This document shows, piece by piece, positions 15,206 through 39,021 of a stretch of DNA of 64,000 nucleotides. The translations under genes were made by a program, and so were the position numbers. Position 1 is the first letter of the stretch. Every line of letters starts with the position of its first letter. The notes below the pieces were generated by a model, which saw only the letters and a program-made list of their open reading frames with translations, did not search any database and was not told the origin of the DNA. The stretch is from Escherichia phage UFV-AREG1, in sequence record KX009778; one strand, 5' to 3'.

Positions 15206-15235
15206 ATTATACCACATCCTTGTGGCAAAGTAAAC
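15206..15235 (-). promoter_or_regulatory. Early sigma70-type promoter (GTTTAC, 18 nt, TATAAT)
   Basis: Minus strand GTTTAC-18nt-TATAAT then GAGGAG SD and ATG of paralogue B. Confidence 0.6.
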
Positions 15236-16260
15236 TAGTTCAGTGCATTTAGTGCATTGTTCAGTTTAGAACGTTGCTTTGTCAGATTTTGAACCCTTGA
15301 CTGAGCTTGTTCTAACACCTTTTCAGCTTCTAGCACTTCATTTGTCGCTTTAACGAGTTCATCATCTACTGCCTTAAGAGACTTCTCAATCGCGTCAGCG
15401 TGCCATTTTTCTACAGGTTTAAAATTTGAATTTTCAGTAGGAAGAAAACTCACTTTATTAAGTTTACATGCATCTATATTGCTTGAGCTATACATCCAAA
15501 ATTTAGGATCGTTTGATGAGTAATTGGATAAATTTAAATTTAAGTTATCTTGCACTTCCTGCTTTTTCTCTTGCGTGACTTCGTCCTTTCTCAAAAAATC
15601 GTATTTAAATGAAACGATCATATCAAGTTCATACGTTGTTGTGTCTAATTTAAATCGTTCAAAACGAGGTAAAATCTTAGATTGAACAGCAGCAACAACA
15701 TCCATATACTTAAATGCTTCTGTCAACTGCGATTTAAGGCATTCGCAAATTGAAAGAGAATTTTTTGTATTAGGTTTAAAGCTAATTCGTGCAGTTCTAT
15801 TATTTTCTTTAAATGGTCTTACTTCCATCTGAAGAGTATAACCATCAAATTTCAGATTCTTTAAGTTAATATCAGAACCTTTTAATCGACTAGCCGTAGA
15901 CAAAATTTGCTTTAATTGTTTACGGAATAGAGCAATAAATCTCCATTCAAGACGATAATGATTTGGATTAAAAAATCCTGTTGATAAATCAACCTTACTC
16001 TGACCAACGCCTTGAACAAATAGAGGATTTTTATAATCAATAGTTTTACAGAAATCGGTGAGCTGCTCACGAGCAGTCATTTGTGTAATATACCCCGCTT
16101 TACTAAAATGACGTAACCATTCACTGCTATTCATATACTTAAAGTGAATGGAACTATTAACTCTATCAGGGTCTAAATTATTTTGGCACAAAAATGTCAT
16201 AACATTACGGGTATAGCTGGCATTACGAACCATATCTTCAATTTGAGAACGAGTTTTCAT
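15235..16260 (-). CDS. hypothetical protein, coiled-coil paralogue C (341 aa)
   Basis: Same architecture; YMDVVAAV motif; C-terminal coiled coil. Confidence 0.7.
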   Translation of the reverse strand: MKTRSQIEDMVRNASYTRNVMTFLCQNNLDPDRVNSSIHFKYMNSSEWLRHFSKAGYITQMTAREQLTDFCKTIDYKNPLFVQGVGQSKVDLSTGFFNPNHYRLEWRFIALFRKQLKQILSTASRLKGSDINLKNLKFDGYTLQMEVRPFKENNRTARISFKPNTKNSLSICECLKSQLTEAFKYMDVVAAVQSKILPRFERFKLDTTTYELDMIVSFKYDFLRKDEVTQEKKQEVQDNLNLNLSNYSSNDPKFWMYSSSNIDACKLNKVSFLPTENSNFKPVEKWHADAIEKSLKAVDDELVKATNEVLEAEKVLEQAQSRVQNLTKQRSKLNNALNALN

Positions 16261-16268
16261 GGTATTCC

Positions 16269-17159
16269 TTAAGATTTAAGTAAATCAACAATTTTAATTA
16301 ACTTTTCACGCTCAGATTTAGCTTTACTACTCAATCCAGATAGTCTGAAAATTTCATCATCATATTGTTGAATAGAAATATTCAGCTCTTCAATTTGCTT
16401 ATTAAAATAATCAATTTGTTCAGAATGTTTTTCGTTACTACGAACTGGTACAGGTTTTGTAGGCAATTTAGTTGAACTAGATTCATCCGGGCGATAAATT
16501 AAAATACAACTTGAACCAATAGGGCATTTTGCACCAGATGAATATTCTAATGTTCCAGCTTCTTTTAAAACTTCAAAAGCTAAACAGAGATGATGTCCCA
16601 TATTAACATAATCTGTAGAGTGAGCTCTGATGTAATAATCATCTCCACGAATACTAAATTTAAAGCATTTAAGGTCTTCTGTATTATTGGTCTTAAAAAT
16701 CATTTGTTTATCTAGACCTTTAGCTAATCGAGCGCCCAATGCTAATAATCGTCGTTGATTTTCCCACAAATCCGCAATCATTTGGTCGAATGATAATTTC
16801 GGCATTAGTCGACCATAAAGGTCATATCCTTTATTATAATTACGAAGGATTTCACTCGCGTTAATACGAGACAATGCTCCAATTTTATTAAGGGCTTTCA
16901 TAATACGATTAGATAAACTCATTCCAGACCCGTTTGTTCGCTGTAAATGTTTTTCTAATCCAAATCCAATATCAACTTTAAACTTATCTAAAATTTCAGC
17001 ATGAACATCTTTGTCGATAACATTCAAATCCAAAGTTGGGTTAAATCTATGAAAAAATTTATCTGGCTCTCCACGACGAAATACAGTCCATTCATTCATC
17101 ATTTTTTTATTAACTAAAGATTTAATTACTGTATTGACATTATTAATTACTACTGACAT
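16269..17159 (-). CDS. hypothetical protein, coiled-coil paralogue D
   Basis: ORF trimmed to ATG at 17159 (MSVVINNV) with GAGG SD; C-terminal coiled coil. Confidence 0.65.
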   Translation of the reverse strand: MSVVINNVNTVIKSLVNKKMMNEWTVFRRGEPDKFFHRFNPTLDLNVIDKDVHAEILDKFKVDIGFGLEKHLQRTNGSGMSLSNRIMKALNKIGALSRINASEILRNYNKGYDLYGRLMPKLSFDQMIADLWENQRRLLALGARLAKGLDKQMIFKTNNTEDLKCFKFSIRGDDYYIRAHSTDYVNMGHHLCLAFEVLKEAGTLEYSSGAKCPIGSSCILIYRPDESSSTKLPTKPVPVRSNEKHSEQIDYFNKQIEELNISIQQYDDEIFRLSGLSSKAKSEREKLIKIVDLLKS

Positions 17160-17166
17160 ATTTTCC

Positions 17167-17574
17167 TCACTCAATTTCAATTTTACTAAATACACAGAAT
17201 ATGATTGAACAGACTACATAAGCACCACACACAGATTGAACTAATACCATCCCAAAGAACCAAACAATATTATCAAACAGTGTCTGTTTTACGTCGAAAG
17301 GACGTAAACTTACAGTAATATTATCACCTTTTTCTATTGAAGAATACATCTCTGGGGAAATATATTCACTAAATCTATAACCGTCTTTGAGTTCATATAC
17401 AGCAATAAACGATAAACTAGACCCCTTTCCTTGTGTTCCTGTAATGGTATTAACTACAGTAACATCATAATCTTTATAATGCATATAATCATTAATTGCG
17501 TAATAACCGTATGCAACTACTACACATAAACAACATATCAATAAATTCAATCTTTTAATTATCAACTGTTTCAT
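17167..17574 (-). CDS. membrane protein with N- and C-terminal transmembrane helices
   Basis: 135-aa ORF; hydrophobic segments LLICCLCVVVAYGYYAI and IVWFFGMVLVQSVCGAYVVCSIIFCVF. Confidence 0.6.
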   Translation of the reverse strand: MKQLIIKRLNLLICCLCVVVAYGYYAINDYMHYKDYDVTVVNTITGTQGKGSSLSFIAVYELKDGYRFSEYISPEMYSSIEKGDNITVSLRPFDVKQTLFDNIVWFFGMVLVQSVCGAYVVCSIIFCVFSKIEIE

Positions 17575-17629
17575 AATAATCTCAATTAAAAGGGCTTAGA
17601 ACCATTATACCATCCTTGGTATAAAGCGG

Positions 17630-18157
17630 TTATGCGAGTACCGTCTTTAACCGTTCTTCAAACTTCCGAAGAGTATTTTGGCGTTCAGCTCTTTGCTTTT
17701 TGTAAGTTTCAATACGCTCTGAAATGAGAGTGTATCGTTCATTTACTGATTCTTTCATAAAATCAGGAATTTCACGAGAAGCTTTAATCTCATCAAATTT
17801 ATCAATAACAGCTTGCTCTTCAGCAATTAAGTTATCATACATCAAAATATCTTTCTTGATGAACTCAATATCTTCTTGAGTTACACGAGATAATTTAGAT
17901 GCTTTATCCTTTTTGTACTGTTCGTTAGTATCACGAGACCAGTGTAATGTACGATTTTTATTCGTATTTTTGTAAATTTCTACAATACCAATCTCATCAA
18001 TAATAACGATCCAATTCCAACGGGATTTGTAAATTTGTCCTCCATCAACTGTGATTTCACCTCCGATTGAGATGTCATTAAAGAACTTGCTTTGTGCTTC
18101 TGATTTAAATTTACCATCATTGTAATTTACCAGGTTGAAAATATCTTTAGCGTTCAT
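17630..18157 (-). CDS. hypothetical protein (175 aa)
   Basis: ORF track; own early promoter immediately upstream. Confidence 0.65.
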   Translation of the reverse strand: MNAKDIFNLVNYNDGKFKSEAQSKFFNDISIGGEITVDGGQIYKSRWNWIVIIDEIGIVEIYKNTNKNRTLHWSRDTNEQYKKDKASKLSRVTQEDIEFIKKDILMYDNLIAEEQAVIDKFDEIKASREIPDFMKESVNERYTLISERIETYKKQRAERQNTLRKFEERLKTVLA

Positions 18158-18183
18158 TTTCTGTTCCTCCGTAGTTGATAGTT

Positions 18184-18215
18184 GTATAGTACCACAGAGG
18201 AACAGTCTTGTAAAC
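18184..18215 (-). promoter_or_regulatory. Early promoter within conserved promoter-stem-loop unit
   Basis: Minus strand GTTTAC-18nt-TACTATAC followed by conserved leader CAACTATCAACTAC and SD. Confidence 0.6.
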
Positions 18216-18217
18216 CA

Positions 18218-18532
18218 CTAAAAGAAACTTCTTTCACAATTTTTTCCACTAAACCATGCGCTGACCGCTTTCTTAGTCTCAGGAGCAGTGTTATCCATAA
18301 ACCATTCAAAGGCAGCCTTTTTATGATTCTGGAGGGCTTCTCGGGCTTTAATCTGCTCACGGTCTATTAACACTAACATATGAGCCTTTCTTGTCACCAA
18401 GGGCTTCTTATGATTCTTGGAGTATTCCCAGTCATTTGTCCAACGCATTGTCGTTGCGAACTGAAATACTGCTTCTTTAATTTTAGTTTCGTAAATTTCA
18501 CGAGCCTTTGAGTATAACATCATTACCTCCAT
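18218..18532 (-). CDS. hypothetical protein (104 aa)
   Basis: ORF track. Confidence 0.55.
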   Translation of the reverse strand: MEVMMLYSKAREIYETKIKEAVFQFATTMRWTNDWEYSKNHKKPLVTRKAHMLVLIDREQIKAREALQNHKKAAFEWFMDNTAPETKKAVSAWFSGKNCERSFF

Positions 18533-18621
18533 TTATCAGTTTAATTCTAGTCATCTTTTTGATGGCAGTCCATATAATCTATTTCTGAACTGCCTTTTTA
18601 TCTTAGAAGGCCTCTTATGAA

Positions 18622-19602
18622 TTATTTCAGAAGAGTAACCTCAGCGATTTCTTCCCAACCGTTTTTGTCGGTCATAATAAAGTCAGCAAGATAAAGAGCA
18701 GTACGCAGTGAAACATTGCGTAAACGATTAACATTGACTTTCATCCATGATAATGCTTTATAAGTTTCTTCATCAGAAAGACCGCGCTTTTGCATCATGT
18801 CGGTTGAAAGAATAACATCTTCAACCCTGACCATAATTTCTTCATTAGTGTGAACACCCAAATCCAAATAAACTGAGCGGGACACCAATGCTTGTAAATG
18901 TGGAGCAAGTTTAGTACCACGGTCTAATTCGCGGTCAATGTCAACGTTTGTGATAAAAACAATCGTTCCTTTAAATTCAAACTCACGCTCAATGCCTTTT
19001 TCTTCTAAGTAAGAAGACGCAGTACTCCAGCAGACTTTACGGGTCTCTCCAGTGTCCAGAGCGGCTTTTAGAAGATTAAGAATGTCCATATCAGAGAAAA
19101 CATCCACATCATCAATCAAAAGGACAGAATTCTCTTCACGATTATTCCAAAGCTGCTCATAAAGACCAATACCAGAGATTTTACCATTAATGCTTTTATA
19201 TTCAATGTATCCAATATCATTTGCTTTATTTAAAGCTTTATCTAAAGAATACGTTTTACCAATACCTGCTGCGCCAGAGATAATTAATGAACGAATATTT
19301 CCATTAATAATACCATTCGTCATCATTCCCATAACATTAAATCTTTTATTAATGCGGGTTTTCATATCTTCATATGATTCTTTAACTTCTTCAACTTTTA
19401 CACCATCATATGAAATATCTGATTTGTAAACCCAAACACCGCGACGTTTACCGTCAATTTCAACAAAAACTTTACCATCTCCTTGTGCATCTACCGGAGC
19501 ATTATCTGGGAACCATTCGCCTAAGAGCTCAAAAGTTCCAGAGATTTCTTTACCGAAGTAGATACCCTTATTGATAGTTACAGTTTTCATTTTATTCTCC
19601 AA
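18622..19602 (-). CDS. P-loop NTPase (AAA-like ATPase) with ~110-aa N-terminal domain
   Basis: Walker A GAAGIGKT, Walker B VLLIDDVD, downstream TIVFITN; own early promoter. Confidence 0.75.
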   Translation of the reverse strand: MENKMKTVTINKGIYFGKEISGTFELLGEWFPDNAPVDAQGDGKVFVEIDGKRRGVWVYKSDISYDGVKVEEVKESYEDMKTRINKRFNVMGMMTNGIINGNIRSLIISGAAGIGKTYSLDKALNKANDIGYIEYKSINGKISGIGLYEQLWNNREENSVLLIDDVDVFSDMDILNLLKAALDTGETRKVCWSTASSYLEEKGIEREFEFKGTIVFITNVDIDRELDRGTKLAPHLQALVSRSVYLDLGVHTNEEIMVRVEDVILSTDMMQKRGLSDEETYKALSWMKVNVNRLRNVSLRTALYLADFIMTDKNGWEEIAEVTLLK

Positions 19603-19625
19603 ATCCGTATCAGTAGTTGATAGTT

Positions 19626-19657
19626 GTATAGTACCATAAAGCTTTATGCTTGTAAAC
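19626..19657 (-). promoter_or_regulatory. Early promoter within conserved promoter-stem-loop unit
   Basis: Same GTTTAC-18nt-TACTATAC architecture and leader upstream of ATPase gene. Confidence 0.6.
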
Positions 19658-19687
19658 CGTTTTGTGAAAAAATTTTTGAAAATAAAA

Positions 19688-19706
19688 GGGGGACCTCTAG
19701 GGCCCC
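19688..19706 (-). terminator. GC-rich hairpin terminator
   Basis: GGGGACC-tcta-GGGCCCC region with T-rich flank on minus strand. Confidence 0.5.
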
Positions 19707-19717
19707 TTTGTGTTGAT

Positions 19718-20203
19718 TTATTCCATTTCTACTATGTGCATGTTCTTTTTGCTATCAAAATATATGTTTTTAACTATTAACTCAGAATTAATTGGCAGTA
19801 AAAACTCTCTTTCATAATCTACCATGCAAAGATTATCATAAAGCTTGTTAAGCTTATCATCGTCAGTTTGACCAGATTCTTCAATTGCGATTAAATTTTC
19901 TAAAATGTCAATCATAGCAGTCGAATAGTCGAAAACGTTTGCATTTTTTAACACTACTAAAACATTAGTCATATAGCGTTCTGCCGCAAACGTTTCAGCT
20001 ATATGAGACTCACTGCTAAAGGAAGTTATTCTTTTAAATTTGATTCTCCTATTAACTTCAAACTTATAAGATAGCACTTCCTCTATTGTAAGTCCTCTAA
20101 AAAGTGTGTCTTTAATCTCAAGTTTGTCTTTAATGTAATCATTAACACGCTTATGATTAAAATCATTAATTTTGTTGCCAAGGCATTGCATTAAAATATG
20201 CAT
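19718..20203 (-). CDS. hypothetical protein (161 aa)
   Basis: ORF track; terminator hairpin downstream. Confidence 0.6.
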   Translation of the reverse strand: MHILMQCLGNKINDFNHKRVNDYIKDKLEIKDTLFRGLTIEEVLSYKFEVNRRIKFKRITSFSSESHIAETFAAERYMTNVLVVLKNANVFDYSTAMIDILENLIAIEESGQTDDDKLNKLYDNLCMVDYEREFLLPINSELIVKNIYFDSKKNMHIVEME

Positions 20204-20307
20204 TGTATTCTCCTCAATTTTTAAAGAGCAATTAATTAACTACACATATATTATAATATGCTTTGCGGCAGAAGTAAACAACTTTGTGGCGTCATTTTAA
20301 ACAAAAA

Positions 20308-20325
20308 GGGAGCCCGAAGGCTCCC
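20308..20325 (-). terminator. Hairpin terminator after nucleotidyltransferase-fold gene
   Basis: Perfect 7-bp stem GGGAGCC-cgaa-GGCTCCC followed by TTTTT on minus strand. Confidence 0.65.
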
Positions 20326-20327
20326 TA

Positions 20328-21790: not shown

Positions 21791-21802
21791 TAATAATCAT
21801 AA

Positions 21803-22324: not shown

Positions 22325-22330
22325 ATTTCC

Positions 22331-22888: not shown

Positions 22889-23054
22889 AATTACATACTC
22901 CTTTGAATAATATCAATAATATTGTTCACCAAATTATAAGTAAACATTGGGTAATTATATTGAATCATCACATACACAACAAACAAAACTTTCATTCTCT
23001 TCTCCTTGGCAGTTGGCAAAATTACTATACCATAACCTTGCCAACTTGTAAACC

Positions 23055-23413: not shown

Positions 23414-23415
23414 AC

Positions 23416-23807: not shown

Positions 23808-23833
23808 GATGTTCTCCTCTTTATCTGATGGTT

Positions 23834-23865
23834 GTATAGTATCACAGCTCAAATGGAAAGTAAAC
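23834..23865 (-). promoter_or_regulatory. Early promoter
   Basis: Minus strand GTTTAC-18nt-TACTATAC; preceded by terminator hairpin. Confidence 0.55.
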
Positions 23866-23881
23866 CGGTAAAATGAAAAAA

Positions 23882-23897
23882 GTCTCCCGAAGGAGAC
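23882..23897 (-). terminator. Hairpin terminator
   Basis: GTCTCC-cgaa-GGAGAC followed by TTTTTTCATTT on minus strand. Confidence 0.6.
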
Positions 23898-23902
23898 TAA
23901 TG

Positions 23903-24579: not shown

Positions 24580-24591
24580 AAAGGCCTCCTA

Positions 24592-27343: not shown

Positions 27344-27805
27344 TCATTGAGTTTTAATTACTGCTTTAGAAGCCTTTCCTGGTAAACGACGACTGTTGAT
27401 AATGGCCATCCTACATTGAAGTGACGGGTCTTTGAACTTCGCATTGGGTTTACAAACTGTAAATCCAAGCCAAAGATTTCCATCTGTGATTTCTAAACGC
27501 CCAGGACGATATTCAACCCCATCAATAAAATCCTCGTCAATGTCAGGACGCGGAGGCATACTCAGGAATTCATTAACTTCTAAAACATGGTCTTTTATTT
27601 TATGGAATAATTCAAAAACATATGTCTCATCAATCTCCCGTTGAATTGCACGATCAAGAAGATGCTGAGAATATTTTAGATGAAACGATGAGACCCCTGC
27701 TGCTTTTGATGCCTCACGAATCTCATTGTTAATTTGACGAAACTCCGACTCAAAGTGACGACGGAGCTTATTTCGACGGATAAAAACTTCTGTGTTGATA
27801 GTCAT
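27344..27805 (-). CDS. regB: Endoribonuclease RegB
   Basis: 153-aa ORF MTINTEVFIRRNKLRRHFESEFRQ; matches recalled T4 RegB; early promoter upstream. Confidence 0.9.
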   Translation of the reverse strand: MTINTEVFIRRNKLRRHFESEFRQINNEIREASKAAGVSSFHLKYSQHLLDRAIQREIDETYVFELFHKIKDHVLEVNEFLSMPPRPDIDEDFIDGVEYRPGRLEITDGNLWLGFTVCKPNAKFKDPSLQCRMAIINSRRLPGKASKAVIKTQ

Positions 27806-27832
27806 GTTATTCTCCTCTTAACTGATAGAAAA

Positions 27833-27862
27833 ATTATACCACAGTCAAGAGGAAAAGTAAAC
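27833..27862 (-). promoter_or_regulatory. Early promoter upstream of regB
   Basis: Minus strand GTTTAC-18nt-TATAAT, then GAGGAG SD and regB ATG. Confidence 0.65.
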
Positions 27863-30010: not shown

Positions 30011-30484
30011 TTATTTGAATGATTTAACGTACTGAATAGAACCTTTACTATTCACAAAGGCAATTTTACCATTTTTGTTATACATGGTAGCAGTACGCTG
30101 ATAGCCATAAGTTTGTTTACCAGATTGATAACCAACTAATGCGAAATTATCTTCACCCATTTTATTCTGTTTAGCGCGAATACGTTCATGGCCATGTGCC
30201 ATAAGAACCTTAGCATCACCAGTTGCAATGGATCGACGAGTTTTTTCATCTTCAACTGTATTAACAAAATCGTCAAATGAATCAAATTTAGCATGAGATT
30301 TATTATACAGTTTTCCATCTACTGCATAATTATATCCTTGTACATCCATCTCAACTTCTGTACCATCATCCAATACAGCAGTGATTTTCTGACCTTTTTT
30401 AAATTTCAAAAGATCAGTAAAAGATTCAGCAATAATTTGAGAATTAATAGCTGCTTCAGTGATAAATTCTTGATATGTTTTCAT
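30011..30484 (-). CDS. Head internal protein candidate with capsid-targeting sequence (ipIII position)
   Basis: N-terminus MKTYQEFITEA matches T4 internal-protein CTS cleaved by prohead protease; located just downstream of e on the minus strand as in T4; body unlike recalled T4 IPIII. Confidence 0.7.
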   Translation of the reverse strand: MKTYQEFITEAAINSQIIAESFTDLLKFKKGQKITAVLDDGTEVEMDVQGYNYAVDGKLYNKSHAKFDSFDDFVNTVEDEKTRRSIATGDAKVLMAHGHERIRAKQNKMGEDNFALVGYQSGKQTYGYQRTATMYNKNGKIAFVNSKGSIQYVKSFK

Positions 30485-30538
30485 ATGTTTCCTTTAAATA
30501 TTTTAATTAGTAATTTGTCTCTTCAAGCAACTGTGAAT

Positions 30539-30568
30539 ATACTATCACAATTCTAGGAGAAAGTAAAC
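30539..30568 (-). promoter_or_regulatory. Early promoter upstream of ipIII-position gene
   Basis: Minus strand GTTTAC-18nt-TAGTAT. Confidence 0.55.
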
Positions 30569-30572
30569 AACT

Positions 30573-31541
<969 letters not shown>

Positions 31542-31560
<19 letters not shown>

Positions 31561-31904
31561 TCACTCACAAACTCTTTCATTGATTCATTTTCAATATAAG
31601 ACATGTAGCTATTATATTCTTTTAATTGTATTTTGTAATCCTTTTTTCTTTGCCAATTTATTTTAAAATTATCATAATGAAAATATAACATGGTACCAAA
31701 GAATGAAAATAATGAAATAATTTTAGTATAGTGAAGTTCACTCCAAACTTCTGTTATATTTACTGTGCCGTCGATGTTTAAAATAAGACAGTCAATTAAC
31801 AATCCAAAAAGACTACCCGCAAGAGCTGCAGCCAACGCCACAGCAAAAATTAAAAATGACTCAGGAAGCGAATATTTGACTTTATTTAGTTTTGGCTTTT
31901 GCAT
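31542..31904 (-). CDS. membrane protein (120 aa)
   Basis: ORF track; hydrophobic segments. Confidence 0.5.
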
Positions 31905-32855: not shown

Positions 32856-32896
32856 TCCTATTTACTCCAAGTAATAGGAGCCGAAGCCCCTTATCA

Positions 32897-33490
32897 TTAT
32901 TTCAGAGAATTAATATATTCCTGGACATCGGCAGAGGTGGTTTCAACCCCAGAAATATTGCCGTTAAAAGTTTCAACTCGAGCAAGGGTATCTTCAATAT
33001 CAACCTTAGTCAGTGCTGCAATTTCAACTACATCATCGGCAGTACTAATTCCAAGGGCATTTGCTGCACGAGTTTCACGGATATATTCCAATTTAACTGC
33101 AAGTTCTTGACGAGCATCATCTAACTCAACTACTTTCTTGGCGATTTCAATTCGCATTTCAGCATAACCGTCAGCTTTAGTAGTCAACTGCTCAGCTGTT
33201 CGACGATATAGTAAACCAAGTTTAGCATGCATTGTTACATCTTGACCTTCAGAAAGAAGTTTACGAATTTCACGCTCTTTTGATTCGGCCTGTCGATTCT
33301 TTTCGATAACAAGTTCACGAATACGTTTTTCTTCATTAATAGATTTAATAGAAGCAGTTTTTAGATCTTTAATTTTATCAAGTAGTTTTGCCGCTGCGGC
33401 AGTATACTGCTCTTCAACAGATAGATTTTTAGCCATAGCAGAACCAAGTTTAGTGCGAATAAACTCAACAATTTTCTTCAGCATGTTCAT
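32897..33490 (-). CDS. coiled-coil protein, possibly PspA/IM30-like
   Basis: 197-aa ORF predicted almost entirely helical with heptad pattern; family assignment tentative. Confidence 0.5.
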
Positions 33491-33535
33491 AGCATTTCCT
33501 TTAGTTAATTAAGGGTTTTATAATCCGTAGGAGTA

Positions 33536-33712
33536 TTATACTCCGGATAGTTTGTAAACTATTTCAACATCGCCTTTTGCTGCTTTATAACCTTCAGCCC
33601 AAGATATAACCGAGTTTTTATCTGAAGATTCAAATTCTGGCATTGGGCTTTCGCCAATGTTCACGCAGTATGTTTCTTCATTTTCGTCGAACCAAATAAT
33701 TAAAGTAGTCAT
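33536..33712 (-). CDS. hypothetical small protein (~58 aa)
   Basis: Manually read ORF MTTLIIWFDENEETYCVNIGESPMPEFE; below ORF-track cutoff. Confidence 0.35.
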   Translation of the reverse strand: MTTLIIWFDENEETYCVNIGESPMPEFESSDKNSVISWAEGYKAAKGDVEIVYKLSGV

Positions 33713-33780
33713 TTATTTCTCCGTTTCTGTATTTGTTTTGATAAGTCTATAATAACACCGTCCTTGGTGTTTGTACACAA

Positions 33781-34044
33781 TTATTTCATATTATTGAAAT
33801 ATTCTTCTGCGATTTCGTCGTTATCATGGTAAACTTTAGAAGACAGTTTAACATAACCTTCTGCCGTGAACATATTAATCACAACCTTTACAGTATACCA
33901 CTGACCATCTTCATTACCCATTACTGCGTAAGTTTCAAACATCGGATGATCAGGACCGATAACTTTAATATCATTCACTGTACGACCAAAATCTTCTGAA
34001 ACACATTTCATAAAGAAGTTGAACAGTTCTCCGTAATTATCCAT
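33781..34044 (-). CDS. hypothetical protein (88 aa)
   Basis: ORF 33781..34176 trimmed to Met MDNYGELFNFF downstream of early promoter and GGAGAA SD. Confidence 0.55.
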   Translation of the reverse strand: MDNYGELFNFFMKCVSEDFGRTVNDIKVIGPDHPMFETYAVMGNEDGQWYTVKVVINMFTAEGYVKLSSKVYHDNDEIAEEYFNNMK

Positions 34045-34086
34045 TTCATTCTCCAAGTTGTTTTTCTGTATCAGTAGTTGATAGTT

Positions 34087-34118
34087 GTATAGTACCATGG
34101 AAGAATAGGGATGTAAAC
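34087..34118 (-). promoter_or_regulatory. Early promoter within conserved promoter-stem-loop unit
   Basis: Minus strand GTTTAC-18nt-TACTATAC and conserved leader. Confidence 0.6.
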
Positions 34119-34256
34119 AGTTTTGTGAAAAATTTTTTAAAAAGTTTTGGGGGAATTCTAGGGCAGGGAGGGGCAATTAAAGGATAGGATAATATATTAT
34201 AAAGGATAGAAACTAAATGATGCCTAGAGAGGCCCGGAAAGGCCTAGATACCAAAA

Positions 34257-34280
34257 AGCCCCAACCTTTTGGTCGGGGCT
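34257..34280 (-). terminator. Hairpin terminator downstream of CTS gene; copy 1 of flanking repeat
   Basis: 10-bp stem AGCCCCAACC/GGTCGGGGCT with 4-nt loop and T-run; near-identical copy at 34812..34835. Confidence 0.6.
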
Positions 34281-34287
34281 AAGAATG

Positions 34288-34761
34288 TTATTTGATTTGT
34301 TTAGCAGACCAAATGCGGTCTTTAATAATTTTTTGGATGTCTTCAATATACTCAAGAGAGTGAGCATGTGGGTTATCTTTGAAACTATAAGCACGAGCTA
34401 GCTTTTGGCCTTCAGTTTTGATTACTAAAAGCTCTTTAAGGATAGCTTCATATTTGGAGATAATTCCTTTAACGATATTTTTCTCTTGTGTGACTTTAGG
34501 ATCTGCTTTAGGAGCAGGTTTACCTGAAGCCTTTGCAAAAGCAGCGCCAGTAGCAACTAAACTTTTCCAGGCCATACTAACAGCATTCCCCGTAAATCCT
34601 TCTGCTTTCATGTCGCGAGCAAATTGGAATCGTGATTCATCAGAAGCATCTTTATAAGAATATTTACCCGCGGCAATGGCAGCTTTTGCAACAGCTTGAA
34701 TTTCAGTGCTAGATGCTTCATTTAACACCGCTTCATTTAAAAATTGAGCATATGATTTCAT
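34288..34761 (-). CDS. Head internal protein candidate with CTS-like N-terminus
   Basis: N-terminus MKSYAQFLNEA resembles internal-protein CTS; perfect late promoter TATAAATA 37 nt upstream; Ala/Lys-rich body. Confidence 0.65.
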   Translation of the reverse strand: MKSYAQFLNEAVLNEASSTEIQAVAKAAIAAGKYSYKDASDESRFQFARDMKAEGFTGNAVSMAWKSLVATGAAFAKASGKPAPKADPKVTQEKNIVKGIISKYEAILKELLVIKTEGQKLARAYSFKDNPHAHSLEYIEDIQKIIKDRIWSAKQIK

Positions 34762-34797
34762 CTTATTTCCTGTTTTAATTCGTGGTTTTAATATACT

Positions 34798-34805
34798 TAT
34801 TTATA
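34798..34805 (-). promoter_or_regulatory. Late promoter (TATAAATA) for CTS gene 34288..34761
   Basis: Exact TATAAATA on minus strand 37 nt upstream of ATG, immediately after terminator hairpin. Confidence 0.65.
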
Positions 34806-34811
34806 CTAAAA

Positions 34812-34835
34812 AGCCCCAACCTTTCGGTCGGGGCT
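34812..34835 (-). terminator. Hairpin terminator upstream of CTS gene; copy 2 of flanking repeat
   Basis: Same 10-bp stem sequence with loop TTTC and T-run, followed by late promoter. Confidence 0.6.
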
Positions 34836-34887
34836 AAGCCTTGCGGCAACCTTGTCGGGGTTCCACCTGCTAAGGCAAGTGTTTGTA

Positions 34888-35043
34888 CGAAACGCCGGGA
34901 TTCGAACCCGGTTATTAAGCAGTTGACGCTACTCAATATTTTTAAAAGGCCATATCTCGACCATATCCGAACGTTCCGTCAAAAACGCTACTCGGCTTAT
35001 GGCAAAGATATTTCCTCGAATCGATAATTCGGTGCGCCGTTTC
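34888..35043 (-). ncRNA. tRNA-like structured stable RNA (possible homologue of T4 species 1/2 RNA)
   Basis: Minus strand has tRNA-like T-arm CCGGGTTCGAATCCCGG followed by CGTTTCG that can pair with GAAACG about 150 nt upstream; no anticodon arm recognised; boundaries approximate. Confidence 0.35.
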
Positions 35044-35122
35044 TGCTGTGATGTAAGAGGGCATCAATAAACGCAAAGATTATTAACGCAATTCCTTACT
35101 CAGGGAACATCAGTCCGACGAC

Positions 35123-35677
35123 TTACCGGTAGCGACCCGGTTTCTCATTTGGTATTTCAAATTGTGTAGATTTAGTATCTAATTTTTTAACTATGGAACT
35201 TATGTCATGAAAGAAAAACCATTCGCCATTTATATGGTCCTGATTATAAATGCTGTGCATATATTTTTCAAGTTCTACTGCATCCTGGGAATATCTAAAT
35301 GATACTATTTTAAAACTTTTAAACGGTGAAAATGTATTTGCTGTTATAACTCTAACATCAGGTTCTATACTTCTTCCTATTTTATAATAATTAGGATTTG
35401 TAGTATCTACCATTATGTATACGAAAGCCTGTCGATAGCTTTTTTCTATATCAAATTCATCTTTAAATTTCAAAAGATTTAGGGCGGCAGTCCTACAAAA
35501 TACTTTCCATTTTGACAAGCGTTTAGCTTTAGTCATAGAAAAGAATTTTTTCTTATCTGTTATTTTAAGAAAAGCAACATTTTCAATTAGTTCTTGTGTT
35601 ATTTCAAAATTACCATGGTATATTAATCCAGCTTTTATAGCCAAATTAATTTGGTCCCAGTCTACATCACTTCTCAT
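35123..35677 (-). CDS. T5orf172/GIY-YIG-like domain protein inside the RNA gene cluster
   Basis: 184-aa ORF; VYIMVDTTNPNYYKIGRSIEPDVR resembles GIY-YIG-related T5orf172 signature. Confidence 0.55.
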   Translation of the reverse strand: MRSDVDWDQINLAIKAGLIYHGNFEITQELIENVAFLKITDKKKFFSMTKAKRLSKWKVFCRTAALNLLKFKDEFDIEKSYRQAFVYIMVDTTNPNYYKIGRSIEPDVRVITANTFSPFKSFKIVSFRYSQDAVELEKYMHSIYNQDHINGEWFFFHDISSIVKKLDTKSTQFEIPNEKPGRYR

Positions 35678-35698
35678 AATATTATTCTCTCAATAATT

Positions 35699-35775
35699 TG
35701 GCCAGGGTGAAAGGATTCTAACCTTTAACCTGCGGTTTAGAGGACCGCTACTCTATACAATTGAGTTACACCCCG
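35699..35775 (-). tRNA. tRNA-Arg (anticodon UCU), CCA encoded
   Basis: Hand-folded cloverleaf: acceptor CGGGGTG/CACCCTG, D-stem ACTC/GAGT, anticodon stem GCGGT/ACCGC with loop CCUCUAA, T-arm AAAGG-TTAGAAT-CCTTT; position 33 is C, which is atypical. Confidence 0.6.
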
Positions 35776-35901
35776 TAATTAGTTCACAGCAATACCTACT
35801 CCAACAATCAAGATGTCTTCACACGAAATTAAGAGAAAAGTGATCAGTTCAACCCTTATAATCGCGTCAAGTAGATATTAATGTGACAACTGTCACAAGT
35901 T

Positions 35902-35976
35902 TGGCGGACATGCATGGATTCGAACCATGGACCAATTGATTAACAGTCAACTGCTCTACCACTGAGCTACACATCC
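35902..35976 (-). tRNA. tRNA-Asn (anticodon GUU), CCA encoded
   Basis: Hand-folded: GGATGTG acceptor, TAGCTCAGTGGTAGAGC D-arm, anticodon loop CUGUUAA, T-loop GGTTCGAATCC. Confidence 0.7.
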
Positions 35977-35980
35977 AAAT

Positions 35981-36067
35981 TGGTGGGGAGTGATGGAGTC
36001 GAACCACCCGAGTCGCAATGACAATGGATTTACAGTCCACACCGCTACCTCTACGGGATAACTCCCC
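35981..36067 (-). tRNA. tRNA-Tyr (anticodon GUA), long variable arm, CCA encoded
   Basis: Hand-folded: anticodon arm GTGGA-CUGUAAA-TCCAT, 87 nt with long variable arm typical of bacterial tRNA-Tyr. Confidence 0.65.
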
Positions 36068-36076
36068 AAATTAATT

Positions 36077-36153
36077 TGGTGACCCAGACCAGATTTGAAC
36101 TGGTAACCTTTCCCTTATGAGGGGACTGCTGCTAACCATTGAGCTACAGGGCC
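36077..36153 (-). tRNA. tRNA with CAU anticodon (Ile2 or Met), CCA encoded
   Basis: Hand-folded: acceptor GGCCCTG, anticodon loop CUCAUAA, T-arm ACCAG-TTCAAAT-CTGGT. Confidence 0.65.
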
Positions 36154-36154
36154 T

Positions 36155-36230
36155 TGGTGCTGATTGACGGAATCGAACCGCCGACATCCTCATTACAAGT
36201 GAGGTGCTCTACCTACTGAGCTAAATCAGC
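36155..36230 (-). tRNA. tRNA-Thr (anticodon UGU), CCA encoded
   Basis: Minus strand GCTGATTTAGCTCAGTAGGTAGAGCACCTCACTTGTAATGAGG...GGTTCGATTCC...CACCA; matches recalled T4 tRNA-Thr. Confidence 0.85.
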
Positions 36231-36232
36231 AA

Positions 36233-36319
36233 CGGAGGCGATAGGATTTGAACCTATGAGTCGCCGGAGCGACTGCCGGTTTTCAAGACCGGTGCATTAA
36301 ACCACTCTGCCACGCCTCC
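36233..36319 (-). tRNA. tRNA-Ser (anticodon UGA), type II, CCA not encoded
   Basis: Hand-folded: acceptor GGAGGCG, anticodon arm CCGGT-CUUGAAA-ACCGG, long variable arm, T-loop GGTTCAAATCC. Confidence 0.8.
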
Positions 36320-36321
36320 AG

Positions 36322-36395
36322 TCTCCATACAAGGATTTGAACCTTGGACCTCCTGATCCCAAATCAGGCGCTCTACCAAACTGAGCTACACGGAG
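36322..36395 (-). tRNA. tRNA-Pro (anticodon UGG), CCA not encoded
   Basis: Hand-folded: CTCCGTG acceptor, D-arm TAGCTCAGTTTGGTAGAGC, anticodon loop UUUGGGA, T-loop GGTTCAAATCC. Confidence 0.8.
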
Positions 36396-36405
36396 TAAAT
36401 TAAAT

Positions 36406-36479
<74 letters not shown>

Positions 36480-36485
36480 AAACTT

Positions 36486-36572
36486 TGGTACGAGAAGTGG
36501 GACTCGAACCCACAAGGAAATCATTCCGCAGCATTTTAAGTGCTGTGCCTTTACCAATTTGACCATTCTCGC
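36486..36572 (-). tRNA. tRNA-Leu (anticodon UAA), type II, CCA encoded
   Basis: Hand-folded: GCGAGAA acceptor, anticodon arm CAGCA-CUUAAAA-TGCTG, long variable arm, T-loop GGGTTCGAGTCCC. Confidence 0.8.
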
Positions 36573-36573
36573 G

Positions 36574-36646
36574 CTGGGAATAAAGGACTCGAACCTTTGC
36601 ATCTAGCAGTCAAAGTGCTATGCCTTACCAACTTGGCTAATTCCCA
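36574..36646 (-). tRNA. tRNA-Gln (anticodon UUG), CCA not encoded
   Basis: Hand-folded: TGGGAAT/ATTCCCA acceptor, anticodon arm TAGCA-CUUUGAC-TGCTA, T-loop AAAGGTTCGAGTCCTTT; abuts tRNA-Leu with 1-nt spacer. Confidence 0.8.
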
Positions 36647-36743
36647 ATTATTAACAAAGGCTCTCAGGAAAGAACCCTTGATGATAGAGGGTATTAATCA
36701 GTGCGGTATGAGTTAATAATAACAAATAATTCTTAAAGCATAT

Positions 36744-37031
36744 TTACCATTTATGATAATACATATTTACAATGCATTCAAGACCTAAAGGATTCTTGAA
36801 AATATCATATTCAAGAGGACCTTTTTCTGTTTCAATAAAGAAATCAAAATTTACTGTATTAAATTTACGGTCTTCCTTCACTAATTTAACTTGAGAAGAT
36901 GAACGGTCAACATAAACCTTTTCAACTTCAAAACATGTTAAAATGCCATAATCATCGATCAAGGCTTTAGCTGCTTCTTGATCATATTTATATCCATTTT
37001 CAATTGACGATACTTTAGCATAAAGAATCAT
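36744..37031 (-). CDS. hypothetical protein (95 aa)
   Basis: ORF track. Confidence 0.55.
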   Translation of the reverse strand: MILYAKVSSIENGYKYDQEAAKALIDDYGILTCFEVEKVYVDRSSSQVKLVKEDRKFNTVNFDFFIETEKGPLEYDIFKNPLGLECIVNMYYHKW

Positions 37032-37033
37032 TA

Positions 37034-37423
37034 TCAGCCTTCATCAACAATAGTATGAGTGTGGGCATTTACAATTTGCCACCAATCAAAGCGATTATAA
37101 CCATACATCGGTTTGTTTTCATTTTCTTTGATAATATCACGGAGTTCATCTTCGGTAGCGGCTTTCGCGATTAAATCAGCATATCCACCACGAGGATAAT
37201 AATTATCACCTGCAAAAAGTAAAAAGTTCGGTTTAATATTATTGAACTCTTCAAGAGTAATAACTTTTCCTGTCGGTTGAACAATCTCTACATATTTATA
37301 TCCTAATTTTTGAGCAGCATCTACTGCTTCAAGCAAAGTATCATGAGCCCATCCAATTTGACAACCTGGCTTTTCAGATGGATTAGCCTGATAATCCGCG
37401 TACACTTTATACATTCTATTCAC
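37034..37423 (-). CDS. hypothetical protein (129 aa)
   Basis: ORF track. Confidence 0.6.
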   Translation of the reverse strand: MNRMYKVYADYQANPSEKPGCQIGWAHDTLLEAVDAAQKLGYKYVEIVQPTGKVITLEEFNNIKPNFLLFAGDNYYPRGGYADLIAKAATEDELRDIIKENENKPMYGYNRFDWWQIVNAHTHTIVDEG

Positions 37424-37601
37424 CTTTAGAAATTTTATCCATAACGATAGCGATTAAACCAATTAAAAATGCTACTACAAGTGAAAACACATTTTCTGCT
37501 GTAGTTAATAATCCGCATATAAATCCAGCAAACATTGAAAAACTAAAAGCAGAAGCAGAAATTGCAATAGCAACATTTCGAATTAATTCACAACGTTTCA
37601 T
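37416..37601 (-). CDS. small membrane protein
   Basis: ORF 37416..37670 trimmed to Met MKRCELIRN downstream of early promoter; hydrophobic helices. Confidence 0.5.
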   Translation of the reverse strand: MKRCELIRNVAIAISASAFSFSMFAGFICGLLTTAENVFSLVVAFLIGLIAIVMDKISKGE

Positions 37602-37629
37602 TTTATTCTCCTCAGTAGTTGATAGGGTA

Positions 37630-37659
37630 ATAGTATCACTACTAAAACCCAATGTAAAC
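37630..37659 (-). promoter_or_regulatory. Early promoter-stem-loop unit (IP locus)
   Basis: GTTTAC-18nt-TACTAT; -10 lies in loop of inverted repeat GTAGT/ACTAC. Confidence 0.6.
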
Positions 37660-37662
37660 AAT

Positions 37663-37887
37663 TTATTCAACGCCAGCGGCTTTCAAAAGTTTTTTAAGAT
37701 TGGCAACACCTTGAGCAGAAAATGTGACCTTGCCACCTTTTTCACTGATAGAACCAACCAATTTAGCAAGTTTATCATTAGGAATTTTTTTAAAATCAGC
37801 CAATGTTCCATCAAAGGTTTTTGAAACAAAAGGCAGTTCGTCTTCGCGTCTTTTAGCTTCTACAATAAATTCTTGATATGTTTTCAT
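37663..37887 (-). CDS. Head internal protein candidate with CTS (74 aa)
   Basis: N-terminus MKTYQEFIVEA; own early promoter-stem-loop upstream. Confidence 0.65.
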   Translation of the reverse strand: MKTYQEFIVEAKRREDELPFVSKTFDGTLADFKKIPNDKLAKLVGSISEKGGKVTFSAQGVANLKKLLKAAGVE

Positions 37888-37915
37888 TTTATTCTCCTCA
37901 GTAGTTGATAGGGTA

Positions 37916-37945
37916 ATAGTATCACTACCCCATCTAAAAGTAAAC
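37916..37945 (-). promoter_or_regulatory. Early promoter-stem-loop unit (IP locus)
   Basis: GTTTAC-18nt-TACTAT with flanking inverted repeat. Confidence 0.6.
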
Positions 37946-37955
37946 GGTTTATAAA

Positions 37956-38264
37956 CTATTTTATTCCGCGTGATGCAATTGTGTTCTGCCGTTTAACGCC
38001 AGTTTGTTTAAAGTCATGATTGTCGATTTGATCGGTACGAGCAACTCCGAATGATGATTTGATCTTAGCTTTAGATCCTTTAGTTATAGAAATAAACATC
38101 TCGGAAGCCCCTTTCTTAAAGTCCGAAGCGATTACTTCAACGCCGTTCTTAGCAAGTGACTTCAGAATTGCCTCTGCATACTCATCGTCAAGACTCGTCT
38201 GAGTATTAATAACGAATGTCTTTGGCGCAGCCGCTTCATTGATAAATTCTTTGAAAGTTTTCAT
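37956..38264 (-). CDS. Head internal protein candidate with CTS (102 aa)
   Basis: N-terminus MKTFKEFINEA; own early promoter-stem-loop upstream. Confidence 0.65.
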   Translation of the reverse strand: MKTFKEFINEAAAPKTFVINTQTSLDDEYAEAILKSLAKNGVEVIASDFKKGASEMFISITKGSKAKIKSSFGVARTDQIDNHDFKQTGVKRQNTIASRGIK

Positions 38265-38294
38265 TTTATTTTCCTAATTAAGTTTGATGAGATA

Positions 38295-38324
38295 ATAGTA
38301 TCACAACCCTATTTAAAAGTAAAC
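38295..38324 (-). promoter_or_regulatory. Early promoter-stem-loop unit (IP locus)
   Basis: GTTTAC-18nt-TACTAT. Confidence 0.6.
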
Positions 38325-38597
38325 TCATTTTAAATAAATTGCGTATTTTTTATAACCCGCTGACTCATGACGAAGACCCTTATCATTAGCAAAACGCTCA
38401 ATGTTGTTAATTTGATTCTGGTCAAGTTCAGAGATGTCAAACACGAAAAAGTTACGTTTGTTACCAACTGTTACATAGTCAGTTAAATCAATATCATATA
38501 GGTAATTGATGTCAGCAATCAAAGTCTTGACAGCTTTGCTAATTTTTACTTTTTCGTTAAAAGTAGCTTCATTGATAAATTCTTGATATGTTTTCAT
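38325..38597 (-). CDS. Head internal protein candidate with CTS (90 aa)
   Basis: N-terminus MKTYQEFINEA; own early promoter-stem-loop upstream. Confidence 0.65.
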   Translation of the reverse strand: MKTYQEFINEATFNEKVKISKAVKTLIADINYLYDIDLTDYVTVGNKRNFFVFDISELDQNQINNIERFANDKGLRHESAGYKKYAIYLK

Positions 38598-38624
38598 TTT
38601 ATTCTCCTCAGTAGTTGATAGGGT

Positions 38625-38655
38625 AATAATATCACAACTAAAACCCTATGTAAAT
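38625..38655 (-). promoter_or_regulatory. Early promoter-stem-loop unit (IP locus), variant
   Basis: ATTTAC then TATTAT-like -10; same leader as neighbours. Confidence 0.5.
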
Positions 38656-38673
38656 AACTTTGTGAAAAATTTA

Positions 38674-38961
38674 TTACAAAAGATTTTTAGCAATAATCTT
38701 GAGATGTGCCGCAGAAATGTGTTTAGCTTTAAACAACGCAGTTTCTTCAGCAGGAGAGATAACGATTGTAGCACCATCCTTTTTAGCAGACCACCCATCG
38801 CCTAGGTAAACAGTACCTTTGATTTCTTCGCCATCAACCAGACTAATCATTGGTTTACCTTCTCGTCCTTTATTTGCTTTAATAACTTCAGAAGTAAGAG
38901 TAGCTTCGGTAATAGTAGAAACCGGGGTAGTTGTAGAAGTAAATTCTTTGAAAGTTTTCAT
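38674..38961 (-). CDS. Head internal protein candidate with CTS (95 aa), at the position of T4 ipI
   Basis: N-terminus MKTFKEFTS...ITEA; immediately upstream of 57B as ipI is in T4; same length as pre-IPI but body not recognised as T4 IPI. Confidence 0.6.
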   Translation of the reverse strand: MKTFKEFTSTTTPVSTITEATLTSEVIKANKGREGKPMISLVDGEEIKGTVYLGDGWSAKKDGATIVISPAEETALFKAKHISAAHLKIIAKNLL

Positions 38962-38991
38962 TTTATTTTCCTAATTAATTTTGATGAGGTA

Positions 38992-39021
38992 ATAGTATCA
39001 CTACCTCATCAGTATGTAAAC
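38992..39021 (-). promoter_or_regulatory. Early promoter-stem-loop unit (IP locus)
   Basis: GTTTAC-18nt-TACTAT; -10 lies between 10-bp inverted repeat TGATGAGGTA/TACCTCATCA. Confidence 0.6.

Follow-up and report, generated by a model that had tools for sequence, protein, structure and literature searches.

The 64,000-nucleotide stretch of Escherichia phage UFV-AREG1 analysed here (sequence record KX009778; referred to as the window, at its full length) carries, between positions 15206 and 39021, a family of repeated early-promoter units, several of which enclose their -10 element in a stem-loop. Judged by its sequence, the window is that of a Tequatrovirus and a close relative of phage T4. 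Megablast searches with 30-40 kb and with 15-39.5 kb matched more than 1,100 phage records, the best being the Tequatroviruses BCH953P2, REP3, HY01, EP01 and SA21RB (95-96% identity over 87-91% of the query), and the part of T4 (AF158101) between 40 and 78 kb is collinear with the window. Both genomes share the gene order gene 55 ... nrdC ... tk ... vs/regB ... e ... tRNAs ... ipI ... 57B ... 1, 3, 2, 4, 53, 5, and all early genes of the window lie on its minus strand.

The strict motif GTTTAC-N18-TA(C/G)TAT has nine exact matches, all on that early-gene strand, against 0.01 expected from shuffled sequences, none of 100 of which reached nine; with one mismatch allowed there are 12 matches against 0.85 expected. 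Once the -10 variants TATAAT, TATAGT and TATTAT are admitted, 15 units are found between 15206 and 39021, made up of the nine exact copies, four with TATAAT or TATAGT and two degenerate ones. A preliminary description of the window had spoken of at least twelve copies, a number that this count bears out; as its range began at 15206, where the -10 is TATAAT, it had counted variants of that type as well. The units are as follows (SD, Shine-Dalgarno sequence; ORF, open reading frame).

38992..39021, minus strand: GTTTAC-N18-TACTAT upstream of the IpI-like gene; hairpin 38982-39011 with arms TGATGAGGTA/TACCTCATCA, TGn and -10 in the loop region
38626..38655, minus strand: degenerate ATTTAC-N18-TATTAT upstream of Ip9; hairpin 38618-38649 (ATAGGGT/ACCCTAT and an inner helix)
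38295..38324, minus strand: upstream of Ip7; no significant hairpin and no terminator
37916..37945, minus strand: upstream of Ip8; hairpin 37907-37934, arms GATGGGGTA/TACCCTATC with one G·U
37630..37659, minus strand: upstream of trna.4; interrupted hairpin 37625-37650
34089..34118, minus strand: e.8 unit with leader CAACTATCAACTAC; no -10 hairpin; intrinsic terminator 34257-34280, about 140 nt 5' of the -35
33749..33778, minus strand: e.7-slot unit, degenerate GTGTAC-N18-TATTAT upstream of a variable 58-aa ORF (33536-33712); spacer hairpin ACACC-AAGGAC-GGTGT
30539..30568, minus strand: GTTTAC-N18-TAGTAT upstream of the Ip4-like gene; weak hairpin 30526-30554, arms AATTGTGA/TCACAGTT with one G·U
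27833..27862, minus strand: -10 TATAAT, upstream of regB (27344-27805); hairpin 27813-27853
23836..23865, minus strand: upstream of a mobD.5 homologue; intrinsic terminator 23881-23898 before the unit, no -10 hairpin
23024..23053, minus strand: -10 TATAGT, upstream of mobD.2; hairpin 23011-23046 of 15 pairs
20250..20279, minus strand: -10 TATAAT, upstream of a variable 161-aa ADP-ribosyltransferase (ART)-like ORF (19718-20203); terminator at about 20303-20324 before the unit
19628..19657, minus strand: nrdC.10 unit with leader CAACTATCAACTAC; terminator at about 19679-19706 before the unit
18186..18215, minus strand: nrdC.8 unit with leader CAACTATCAACTAC; neither hairpin nor terminator
15206..15235, minus strand: nrdC.4 unit, -10 TATAAT; spacer hairpin CCACA-AGGA-TGTGG

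All 15 units sit in an intergenic gap on the gene strand, immediately 5' of an SD and ATG, and the stop codon of the preceding gene often overlaps or abuts the -35; a strong gene-strand bias of the motif is also seen in a wider set of T4-like loci. The extended -10 TGn (gTGa or gTGg) is present in 13 of them, the exceptions being 20250 and 23024, and A+T makes up 75% of the 25 nt preceding the -35 (65% in the window as a whole), where TTTCACAAA(G/A) recurs. Sequences 5' of T4 ipI, ipII, ipIII and trna.4 are orthologues of units of the window, and in the record of the relative SA21RB the matching sites are annotated 'T4 early promoter'. From their GTTTAC, TGn, 18-nt spacer and A/T-rich upstream region, together with the T4 homology and this annotation, the units are T4-type early promoters, as had been proposed, from which sigma-70 polymerase would initiate. 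The leader that was said to follow them is less uniform: its exact form CAACTATCAACTAC occurs in three copies only (18171, 19613 and 34074) and the shorter TATCAACTAC in six units, the remaining units having different leaders. In the internal-protein (IP) units, two subtypes of leader and following codons alternate, ...CTCATCAAAATTAATTAGGAAAATAAAATGAAAACTTTCAAAGAATTT and ...CCCTATCAACTACTGAGGAGAATAAAATGAAAACATATCAAGAATTT.

The region from -20 to +22 of each unit was folded as RNA and compared with 200 shuffles per unit. Four units gave hairpins that none of the 200 shuffles equalled in stability: 38992 (-17.4 kcal/mol, z -5.6), 27833 (-19.0 kcal/mol, z -5.8), 37916 (-16.1 kcal/mol, z -4.6) and 23024 (-19.2 kcal/mol, z -4.6), the last with the lowest free energy of all units. 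Those of 37630 (-11.7 kcal/mol, z -2.65, 5/200 shuffles) and 38626 (-11.4 kcal/mol, z -2.7, 1/200) are moderate and that of 30539 (-8.8 kcal/mol, z -1.9, 10/200) is weak, and the same fold shows no structure in units 18186, 19628, 20250, 23836 and 34089 (z about 0). The claim that the -10 lies between the arms of an inverted repeat at several sites thus stands, with seven such units, four of them strong. The choice of the best examples stands in part: 38992 is indeed among the strongest, 37630 is only moderate, and the most stable one, at 23024-23053, had not been named. Altogether, seven of the 15 units have a hairpin enclosing the -10, three a terminator just 5', 34089 a terminator farther upstream and two a spacer hairpin, and two, 18186 and 38295, have no stem-loop at all. 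In every -10-enclosing hairpin the 5' arm falls in the promoter spacer and the 3' arm begins within or just past the -10 hexamer, which places the TGn and the -10 in or beside the loop. The hairpin upstream of the IpI-like gene is identical to the one upstream of T4 ipI, and the T4 ipIII and ipII counterparts of the weak hairpin at 30539 are perfect stems of 8-9 bp. A search of 15-40 kb against Rfam returned ten tRNAs only and no family at the hairpins. The spacer hairpins form a small set of their own: on the minus strand, an AGGA-type loop lies just before the -10 at 15206-15235, 33749-33778 and 17575-17629, the last (ATACCA-AGGA-TGGTAT) within a middle-promoter-like site with a MotA box (GCTT).

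The hairpins recur among relatives with other sequences in their arms. Our comparative set held 641 promoter-like units (408 unique, in 208 clusters) from 75 T4-like loci, which came from T4, from nine Tequatrovirus records and, by way of gp57B and Tk, from IMG/VR, and which cover several Tevenvirinae lineages. With the pairing register i + j counted from the first T of the -10, 19 of the 208 clusters had at least six perfect Watson-Crick pairs in the register i + j = 1; permutation of the 3' halves gave 2.1 (at most 9 in 2000 permutations). For a second register, -5, the figures were seven clusters and 0.8. The arms are diverse yet complementary (TGATGAGGTA, TAGGACTA, AGGGCTAT or AGGGTTAT, GAGGACA, GGGAACAT, GGGCTCAT, AGTTGACAAGATTA and others). 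When a -10-enclosing hairpin is called at a dG of -9 or lower with at least six enclosing pairs, 37.9% of the units without an upstream terminator have one, compared with 5.2% of chimeric controls. Where pairs within the stems depart from Watson-Crick geometry, they do so unevenly on the sense strand: G·T outnumbers A·C by 30 to 3 overall and by 22 to 3 outside the -10 hexamer (12 and 3 distinct contexts). This asymmetry is consistent with a structure in the sense-strand RNA, or the sense single strand, rather than with a double-stranded cruciform. In the orthologues of the 23024 hairpin, given positions hold A-U, G·U or G-C, with pairing kept. Counted from the first base of the -10 hexamer, the commonest 3' ends of the outer pairs fall between +10 and +21.

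A second regularity concerns terminators. In the window, units 19628, 20250 and 23836 have a classical GC-rich hairpin and T-run just 5' of the UP region, and with 34089 (whose terminator at 34257-34280 falls beyond the 90-nt reach of the terminator test) they make four terminator-bearing units, none of which has a -10 hairpin. Across all loci, a -10 hairpin accompanies an upstream terminator in 0 of 59 units, against 132 of 348 units without one (Fisher p = 1.4e-11), and at cluster level the figures are 0/34 and 78/212 (p = 1.3e-6). The separate upstream terminators at 19679-19706, 20303-20324, 23881-23898 and 34257-34280 have a U-tract. It is missing from the -10 hairpins, and for this reason we reject these as canonical intrinsic terminators, even though, in the SA21RB record, WebGeSTer and TransTermHP call several of them terminators, overlapping the annotated early promoters. 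A GGAG in the SD, the RegB site, did not distinguish hairpin units from terminator units when compared by eye, and we found nothing usable in the literature on mapped 5' and 3' transcript ends of T4.

The internal-protein genes lie at two loci.

37663..38961, minus strand: IP locus 1, between 57B and trna.4; four IP genes, each with the leader MKT(Y/F)(Q/K)EF
38674-38961, minus strand: IpI-like gene, IP locus 1
38325-38597, minus strand: Ip9, IP locus 1
37956-38264, minus strand: Ip7, IP locus 1
37663-37887, minus strand: Ip8, IP locus 1
30011-30484, minus strand: Ip4-like gene, IP locus 2, downstream of e; PHROG 3155, E 6e-102

The genes of locus 1 match PHROG internal virion or head proteins (E 2e-25 to 4e-55), and five ORFs in all share the marks of T-even IP genes: the leader MKT(Y/F)(Q/K)EF...E, a small size and a place in the 57B-trna.4 or the e-denV locus. 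A unit precedes each of the five, as had been claimed for every internal-protein gene, and another copy precedes trna.4. What is conserved at these loci is a block of 100-130 bp, which begins in the UP region, takes in promoter, leader and SD and includes the first ~11 codons, the capsid-targeting sequence (CTS). Locus 1 is 95% identical to the RB15 record Z35082 (1,448 bp, ip5-ip9-ip7-ip8), with ipI in place of ip5, and EP01 and KIT06 have the identical four-gene arrangement. The exchange of ipI for ip5 extends from the end of the CTS (38927) to the UP-element region just 5' of the next unit's -35 (38667), so that the expectation of IP-locus rearrangements bounded by units is borne out.

Two further differences from relatives concern IP or IP-like genes. 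The endonuclease V gene denV is absent from the window; an insert of 411 bp, annotated denV in REP3 and HY01, is present in six relatives at 30499-30514, within the leader that follows the 30539 promoter, and the T4 series denV-ipII-ipIII corresponds to the single Ip4-like gene here. Outside both canonical IP loci, a 157-aa ORF at 34288-34761 on the minus strand (PHROG 2280) begins MKSYAQFLNEA, resembling the IP leader MKTYQEFINEA. Before it stands a late-promoter-like TATAAATA instead of an early-promoter unit, and it is flanked by two terminator copies, 34257-34280 and 34812-34835, of the form AGCCCCGACC-NAAA-GGTTGGGGCT-TTTT. T4 lacks the ORF, and the two terminator copies are there collapsed into one (35-bp overlap).

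Breakpoints were mapped between the window and 12 relatives, T4 and 11 other Tequatroviruses, which gave ~37 distinct breakpoints at ~13 variable loci. Twelve of the 37 fall inside units or their leader and CTS, which make up ~8% of the sequence, or about four times the expectation from length. The coincidence is complete at IP locus 1, where all breakpoints, RB15 included, lie in units or CTS (37642-37666, 37882, 38308, 38592, 38667 and 38927-38940). It is also found on the right side of IP locus 2 (30449-30584, in the unit or leader/CTS), at the right end of the e.7 slot (33781, in the unit, in seven relatives) and at the ART-like cassette 19690-20303, which two units bound and both ends of which fall in units (19600-19706 and 20274-20311), recurring in 11 of the 12 relatives. 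Elsewhere the breakpoints lie outside units: at mobD and its replacement, the insertion site 22877/22890, tk.1-tk.3, the left side of IP locus 2, the e.2 deletion, the 34288-34761 insertion, the tRNA/homing-endonuclease segment and trna.3. No early-promoter unit stands at the ends of the mobD replacement, tk.1-tk.3, the e.2 deletion, the 34288-34761 ORF or the tRNA/homing-endonuclease region. Synteny breakpoints coincide with units at these four places, and only about a third of all breakpoints lie in units. The proposal that the units mark recently acquired genes is not supported: eight of the 15 precede genes kept in all 12 relatives (nrdC.4, nrdC.8, nrdC.10, mobD.2, mobD.5, regB, e.8 and trna.4), and a number of variable segments are not bounded by units. 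In themselves, the units do not mark recent acquisitions.

Several of the variable segments deserve a description of their own. The ART-like ORF (19718-20203, minus strand, 161 aa) matches the C-terminal part of the PHROG 832 'RNA polymerase ADP-ribosylase' family (E 7e-24). Of the 12 relatives, HY01 alone has its terminator-promoter-ORF cassette, which lies between nrdC.11 and nrdC.10; in the others, the position holds a different 201-nt ORF or nothing. At 31542-31571, e.2 and its upstream intergenic region, ~455 bp present in 10 of the 12 relatives, are missing, and the other two relatives show no break; the 30-bp overlap of the flanks suggests a deletion between short direct repeats, at a place without a promoter unit. 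A 184-aa ORF at 35123-35677 on the minus strand, with weak homing-endonuclease-like PHROG matches, stands in place of T4 segB, and the tRNA cluster at 35700-36650, on the same strand, has ten Rfam tRNA matches, against eight tRNAs in T4. Two labels in RefSeq/GenBank records of relatives look like name-propagation errors: 'RNA ligase' in several of them for the gp57B homologue beside the IP locus, and 'molybdopterin-guanine dinucleotide biosynthesis protein MobD' for small mobD.x ORFs.

Our reading joins these observations. By sequence and by homology to T4, each unit is an early promoter at which sigma-70 polymerase would initiate. It consists of an A/T-rich UP region, the -35 GTTTAC, an 18-nt spacer closed by TGn and a -10 TAnnAT; behind it come a short leader, an SD of the GGAG or GGA type and the start codon of an early gene. 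As the conserved block runs from the UP region into the CTS, each mature-IP coding body lies between two near-identical blocks, and homologous recombination between these could swap, add or delete IP cassettes, a mechanism suggested by the pattern of breakpoints and in line with Repoila 1994 and the published promoter-early stem-loop (PeSL) model. Within the units, alignment ends are scattered from the UP region to the CTS, a spread more in keeping with general homologous recombination across a repeat of 100-130 bp than with a site-specific event. In about a third of the units the -10 lies within a hairpin, with the 5' arm in the spacer and the 3' arm at about -6 to +4. If sigma-70 polymerase starts ~7 nt beyond the -10, the start falls within that 3' arm or past it, so a unit's own transcript could not form the hairpin, and only RNA reading through from upstream would do so. 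Since the stem tolerates G·U but not A·C, never stands beside a canonical terminator and lacks a U-tract, we take it to be an attenuator or a 3'-end element. It may form the attenuating, or the 3'-end-forming or stabilising, half of a compact composite of terminator and promoter, and would act on read-through sense RNA wherever a junction has no room for a terminator of its own. To the reading as a whole, with sigma-70 early promoters, IP cassettes exchanged via repeated blocks and -10 hairpins acting on read-through sense RNA, we give a probability of roughly three in four. A bolder proposal goes further and sees the Tevenvirinae -10 hairpins as sense-RNA elements of a class of their own, which lack a U-tract, replace intrinsic terminators at compact junctions, evolve via G·U intermediates and act in a non-canonical way, perhaps by U-tract-free attenuation or by protecting the 3' end of the upstream cistron after RegB or RNase E cleavage of the leader. 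This we put forward tentatively, as a possibility about which we are ourselves doubtful.

Some of the evidence pulls the other way. A U-rich tract (at least five T in the 8 nt after the stem) follows one of 132 -10 hairpins, and the tails are 52% A. When covariation was sought in a single register, among 46 IP and trna.4 units chosen by their downstream gene, pairing stood at 61% against 59% in shuffles, and the double changes were exceeded in 5 of 500 shuffles, which is marginal. We attribute this to the use of at least two registers by the arms (i + j = 1 and -5) and prefer the per-unit permutation and chimera tests. The units of the comparative set are related by descent, which makes the p-values optimistic, a problem that the cluster-level tests lessen but do not remove. 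At the level of junctions, the enrichment of breakpoints is rather modest, 9 of 15 unit junctions against ~12 of 40 others in a count made by hand. The ends of BLAST alignments are, moreover, pulled to any shared repeat, inflating the coincidence of breakpoints with units.

The simplest alternative is that nothing but promoters is present: the units would resemble each other because binding by RNA polymerase is under selection, the hairpins would be incidental, and breakpoints would fall at units because every accessory gene brings its own promoter. The consensus GTGATACTAT is indeed partly palindromic, and part of the inner stem (-4/-2 with +3/+5) stems from it; the marginal covariation, the eight units before universally kept genes and the position of most breakpoints elsewhere all agree with such a view. 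It does not explain, however, why the similarity of the IP units reaches past the polymerase contacts into leader, SD and 11 codons, why arms that vary between units remain complementary, why the hairpin is seven times commoner in native units than in chimeras or why it is strictly excluded where a terminator is present, and we consider it unlikely. The inverted repeats might instead work at the DNA level, as cruciforms or single-strand hairpins targeted by a recombination or resolution enzyme, for example endonuclease VII, or by a binding protein, and so create hotspots of recombination. A few breakpoints do lie in the spacer or 5' arm (37642 and 38308). The excess of G·T over A·C outside the -10 would be unexpected for a cruciform, in which one strand's G·T is the other's A·C; AT-rich arms of only 6-15 bp around loops of 4-10 nt would extrude poorly; the variable sequences of the arms argue against a sequence-specific protein; and the breakpoints spread across the 100-130 bp block rather than focusing on the hairpin. 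We regard an action at the DNA level as quite improbable.

The regB unit raises a further alternative. In its hairpin (27813-27853, minus strand), CCUCUU of the spacer pairs with AAGAGG of the regB SD, so that read-through RNA would sequester the regB ribosome-binding site and transcripts from the unit's own promoter would not. All the hairpins could then be translational discriminators of the kind known for T4 e, soc and gene 49, which hide the ribosome-binding site in read-through RNA and leave only own-promoter transcripts to be translated; the promoter lies inside the 5' arm, and the own transcript lacks that arm, just as in the classical late promoters of T4. The 3' arms of the IP, trna.4 and mobD.2 units, however, end 12-25 nt 5' of an SD that stays unpaired, and the commonest 3' ends of the outer pairs, given above, agree with this. 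As a general role of the hairpins, sequestration of the ribosome-binding site was rejected, the SD being reached in the regB unit only, and we hold this explanation to be very improbable for the class as a whole. The preferred reading, in which the hairpins act as attenuators or 3'-end elements of read-through RNA, keeps the regB unit as a special case.

As for known systems, T4 early promoters were reportedly described by Liebig and Rüger in 1989 and by Miller et al. in 2003. The units of the window agree with them in GTTTAC, TGn, TAnnAT, the A/T-rich UP region, the position on the early strand and the GGAG-type SD, and are orthologous at ipI, ipII, ipIII, trna.4, mobD.2 and others; the differences, other accessory genes in this phage and a few degenerate units (ATTTAC, GTGTAC), are not substantive. 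Descriptions of T4 early promoters as UP/-35/TGn/-10 promoters are in accord (PMC2988021).

The promoter-stem-loop arrangement at the IP loci is a rediscovery of published biology. The model of recombination at such elements in T4-type phages, to which the preliminary description had referred, exists in print and covers hairpins that overlap the -10 (PMC2839356), the T4/PST pair (PMC4122927) and, through the work of Repoila 1994 that both papers cite, the IP loci. As far as it is reported in those two papers, Repoila 1994 (EMBO J 13:4181) described elements at the two IP loci based on the T4 early promoter, with AT-rich stem-loops, similar to those later named PeSL. On the same footing, the RB15 blocks of that work (Z35082) share with the window ip9-ip7-ip8 at 95% identity, the same 11-codon leader and the same upstream blocks, with no difference in kind and ip5 in the first slot where the window has ipI. 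Arbiol et al. (2010) defined the PeSL as an early promoter plus a stem-loop, found that the stem-loops attenuate a lacZ reporter and listed overlap with the -10 among the commonest positions (PMC2839356); Comeau et al. (2014) described PeSLs with TTTACW-N17-TAYWAT in the T4/PST pair (PMC4122927). Like our units, PeSLs are composites of early promoter, stem-loop and SD/ATG, with the stem-loop upstream of the promoter, between -35 and -10 or overlapping the -10. They are concentrated in hyperplastic regions and lie beside indels and replacements; some of the window's units, too, lie at such boundaries. In the PeSL model, the stem-loop is further held to terminate or attenuate transcription from upstream, and recombination between PeSLs to release mini-circles. 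They differ in RB49 and phi1 by near-consensus TTGACA promoters and polyG/polyC stems, and for Arbiol et al. the IP-associated elements of T-even phages are analogues rather than homologues; in PST, the legend of the 2014 figure places the stem-loops 'just upstream' of the promoter, whereas seven units of the window enclose the -10. What the present analysis adds is modest and quantitative: the exclusivity of terminator and -10 hairpin, the G·U asymmetry and the lack of a U-tract. To our knowledge, the PeSL papers treat stem-loop positions qualitatively and assume a terminator function, and we know of no mention in them of the either/or rule, the missing U-tract or the strand asymmetry.

The IP genes are injected anti-defence cargo, IpI blocking GmrSD and IPIII being needed on some hosts (PMC9391042), and the repeated promoter-leader-CTS blocks would let T-even phages exchange that cargo. 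Recognising the blocks should help both the annotation of accessory modules and the prediction of sites for cassette exchange or engineering.

Three other systems invite comparison with the hairpins themselves. Classical T4 late promoters are said, after McPheeters et al. in 1986, to lie inside the 5' arm of a hairpin. The late promoters in ribosome-binding-site-sequestering hairpins of e, soc, 49 and I-TevI would be alike in that folding is left to read-through RNA, the transcript of the embedded promoter being without the 5' arm; they differ in being late promoters with the hairpin over SD and AUG, whereas in the window only the regB unit reaches the SD. With intrinsic terminators the -10 hairpins share a stable sense-RNA stem at the end of the upstream gene, but the U-tract is missing and the tails are A-rich. 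The third system is that of the promoter-coupled terminators of bacteria (Fletcher et al., bioRxiv 2026, 10.64898/2026.08.19.745784), in which, as in our units, the termination and initiation signals of tandem units fall within the same few tens of base pairs. In the bacterial elements, however, the DNA of the hairpin supplies the -35, the T-tract lies in the spacer and the -10 follows downstream, whereas in the window the -10 itself sits in or near the loop of a hairpin that has no T-tract.

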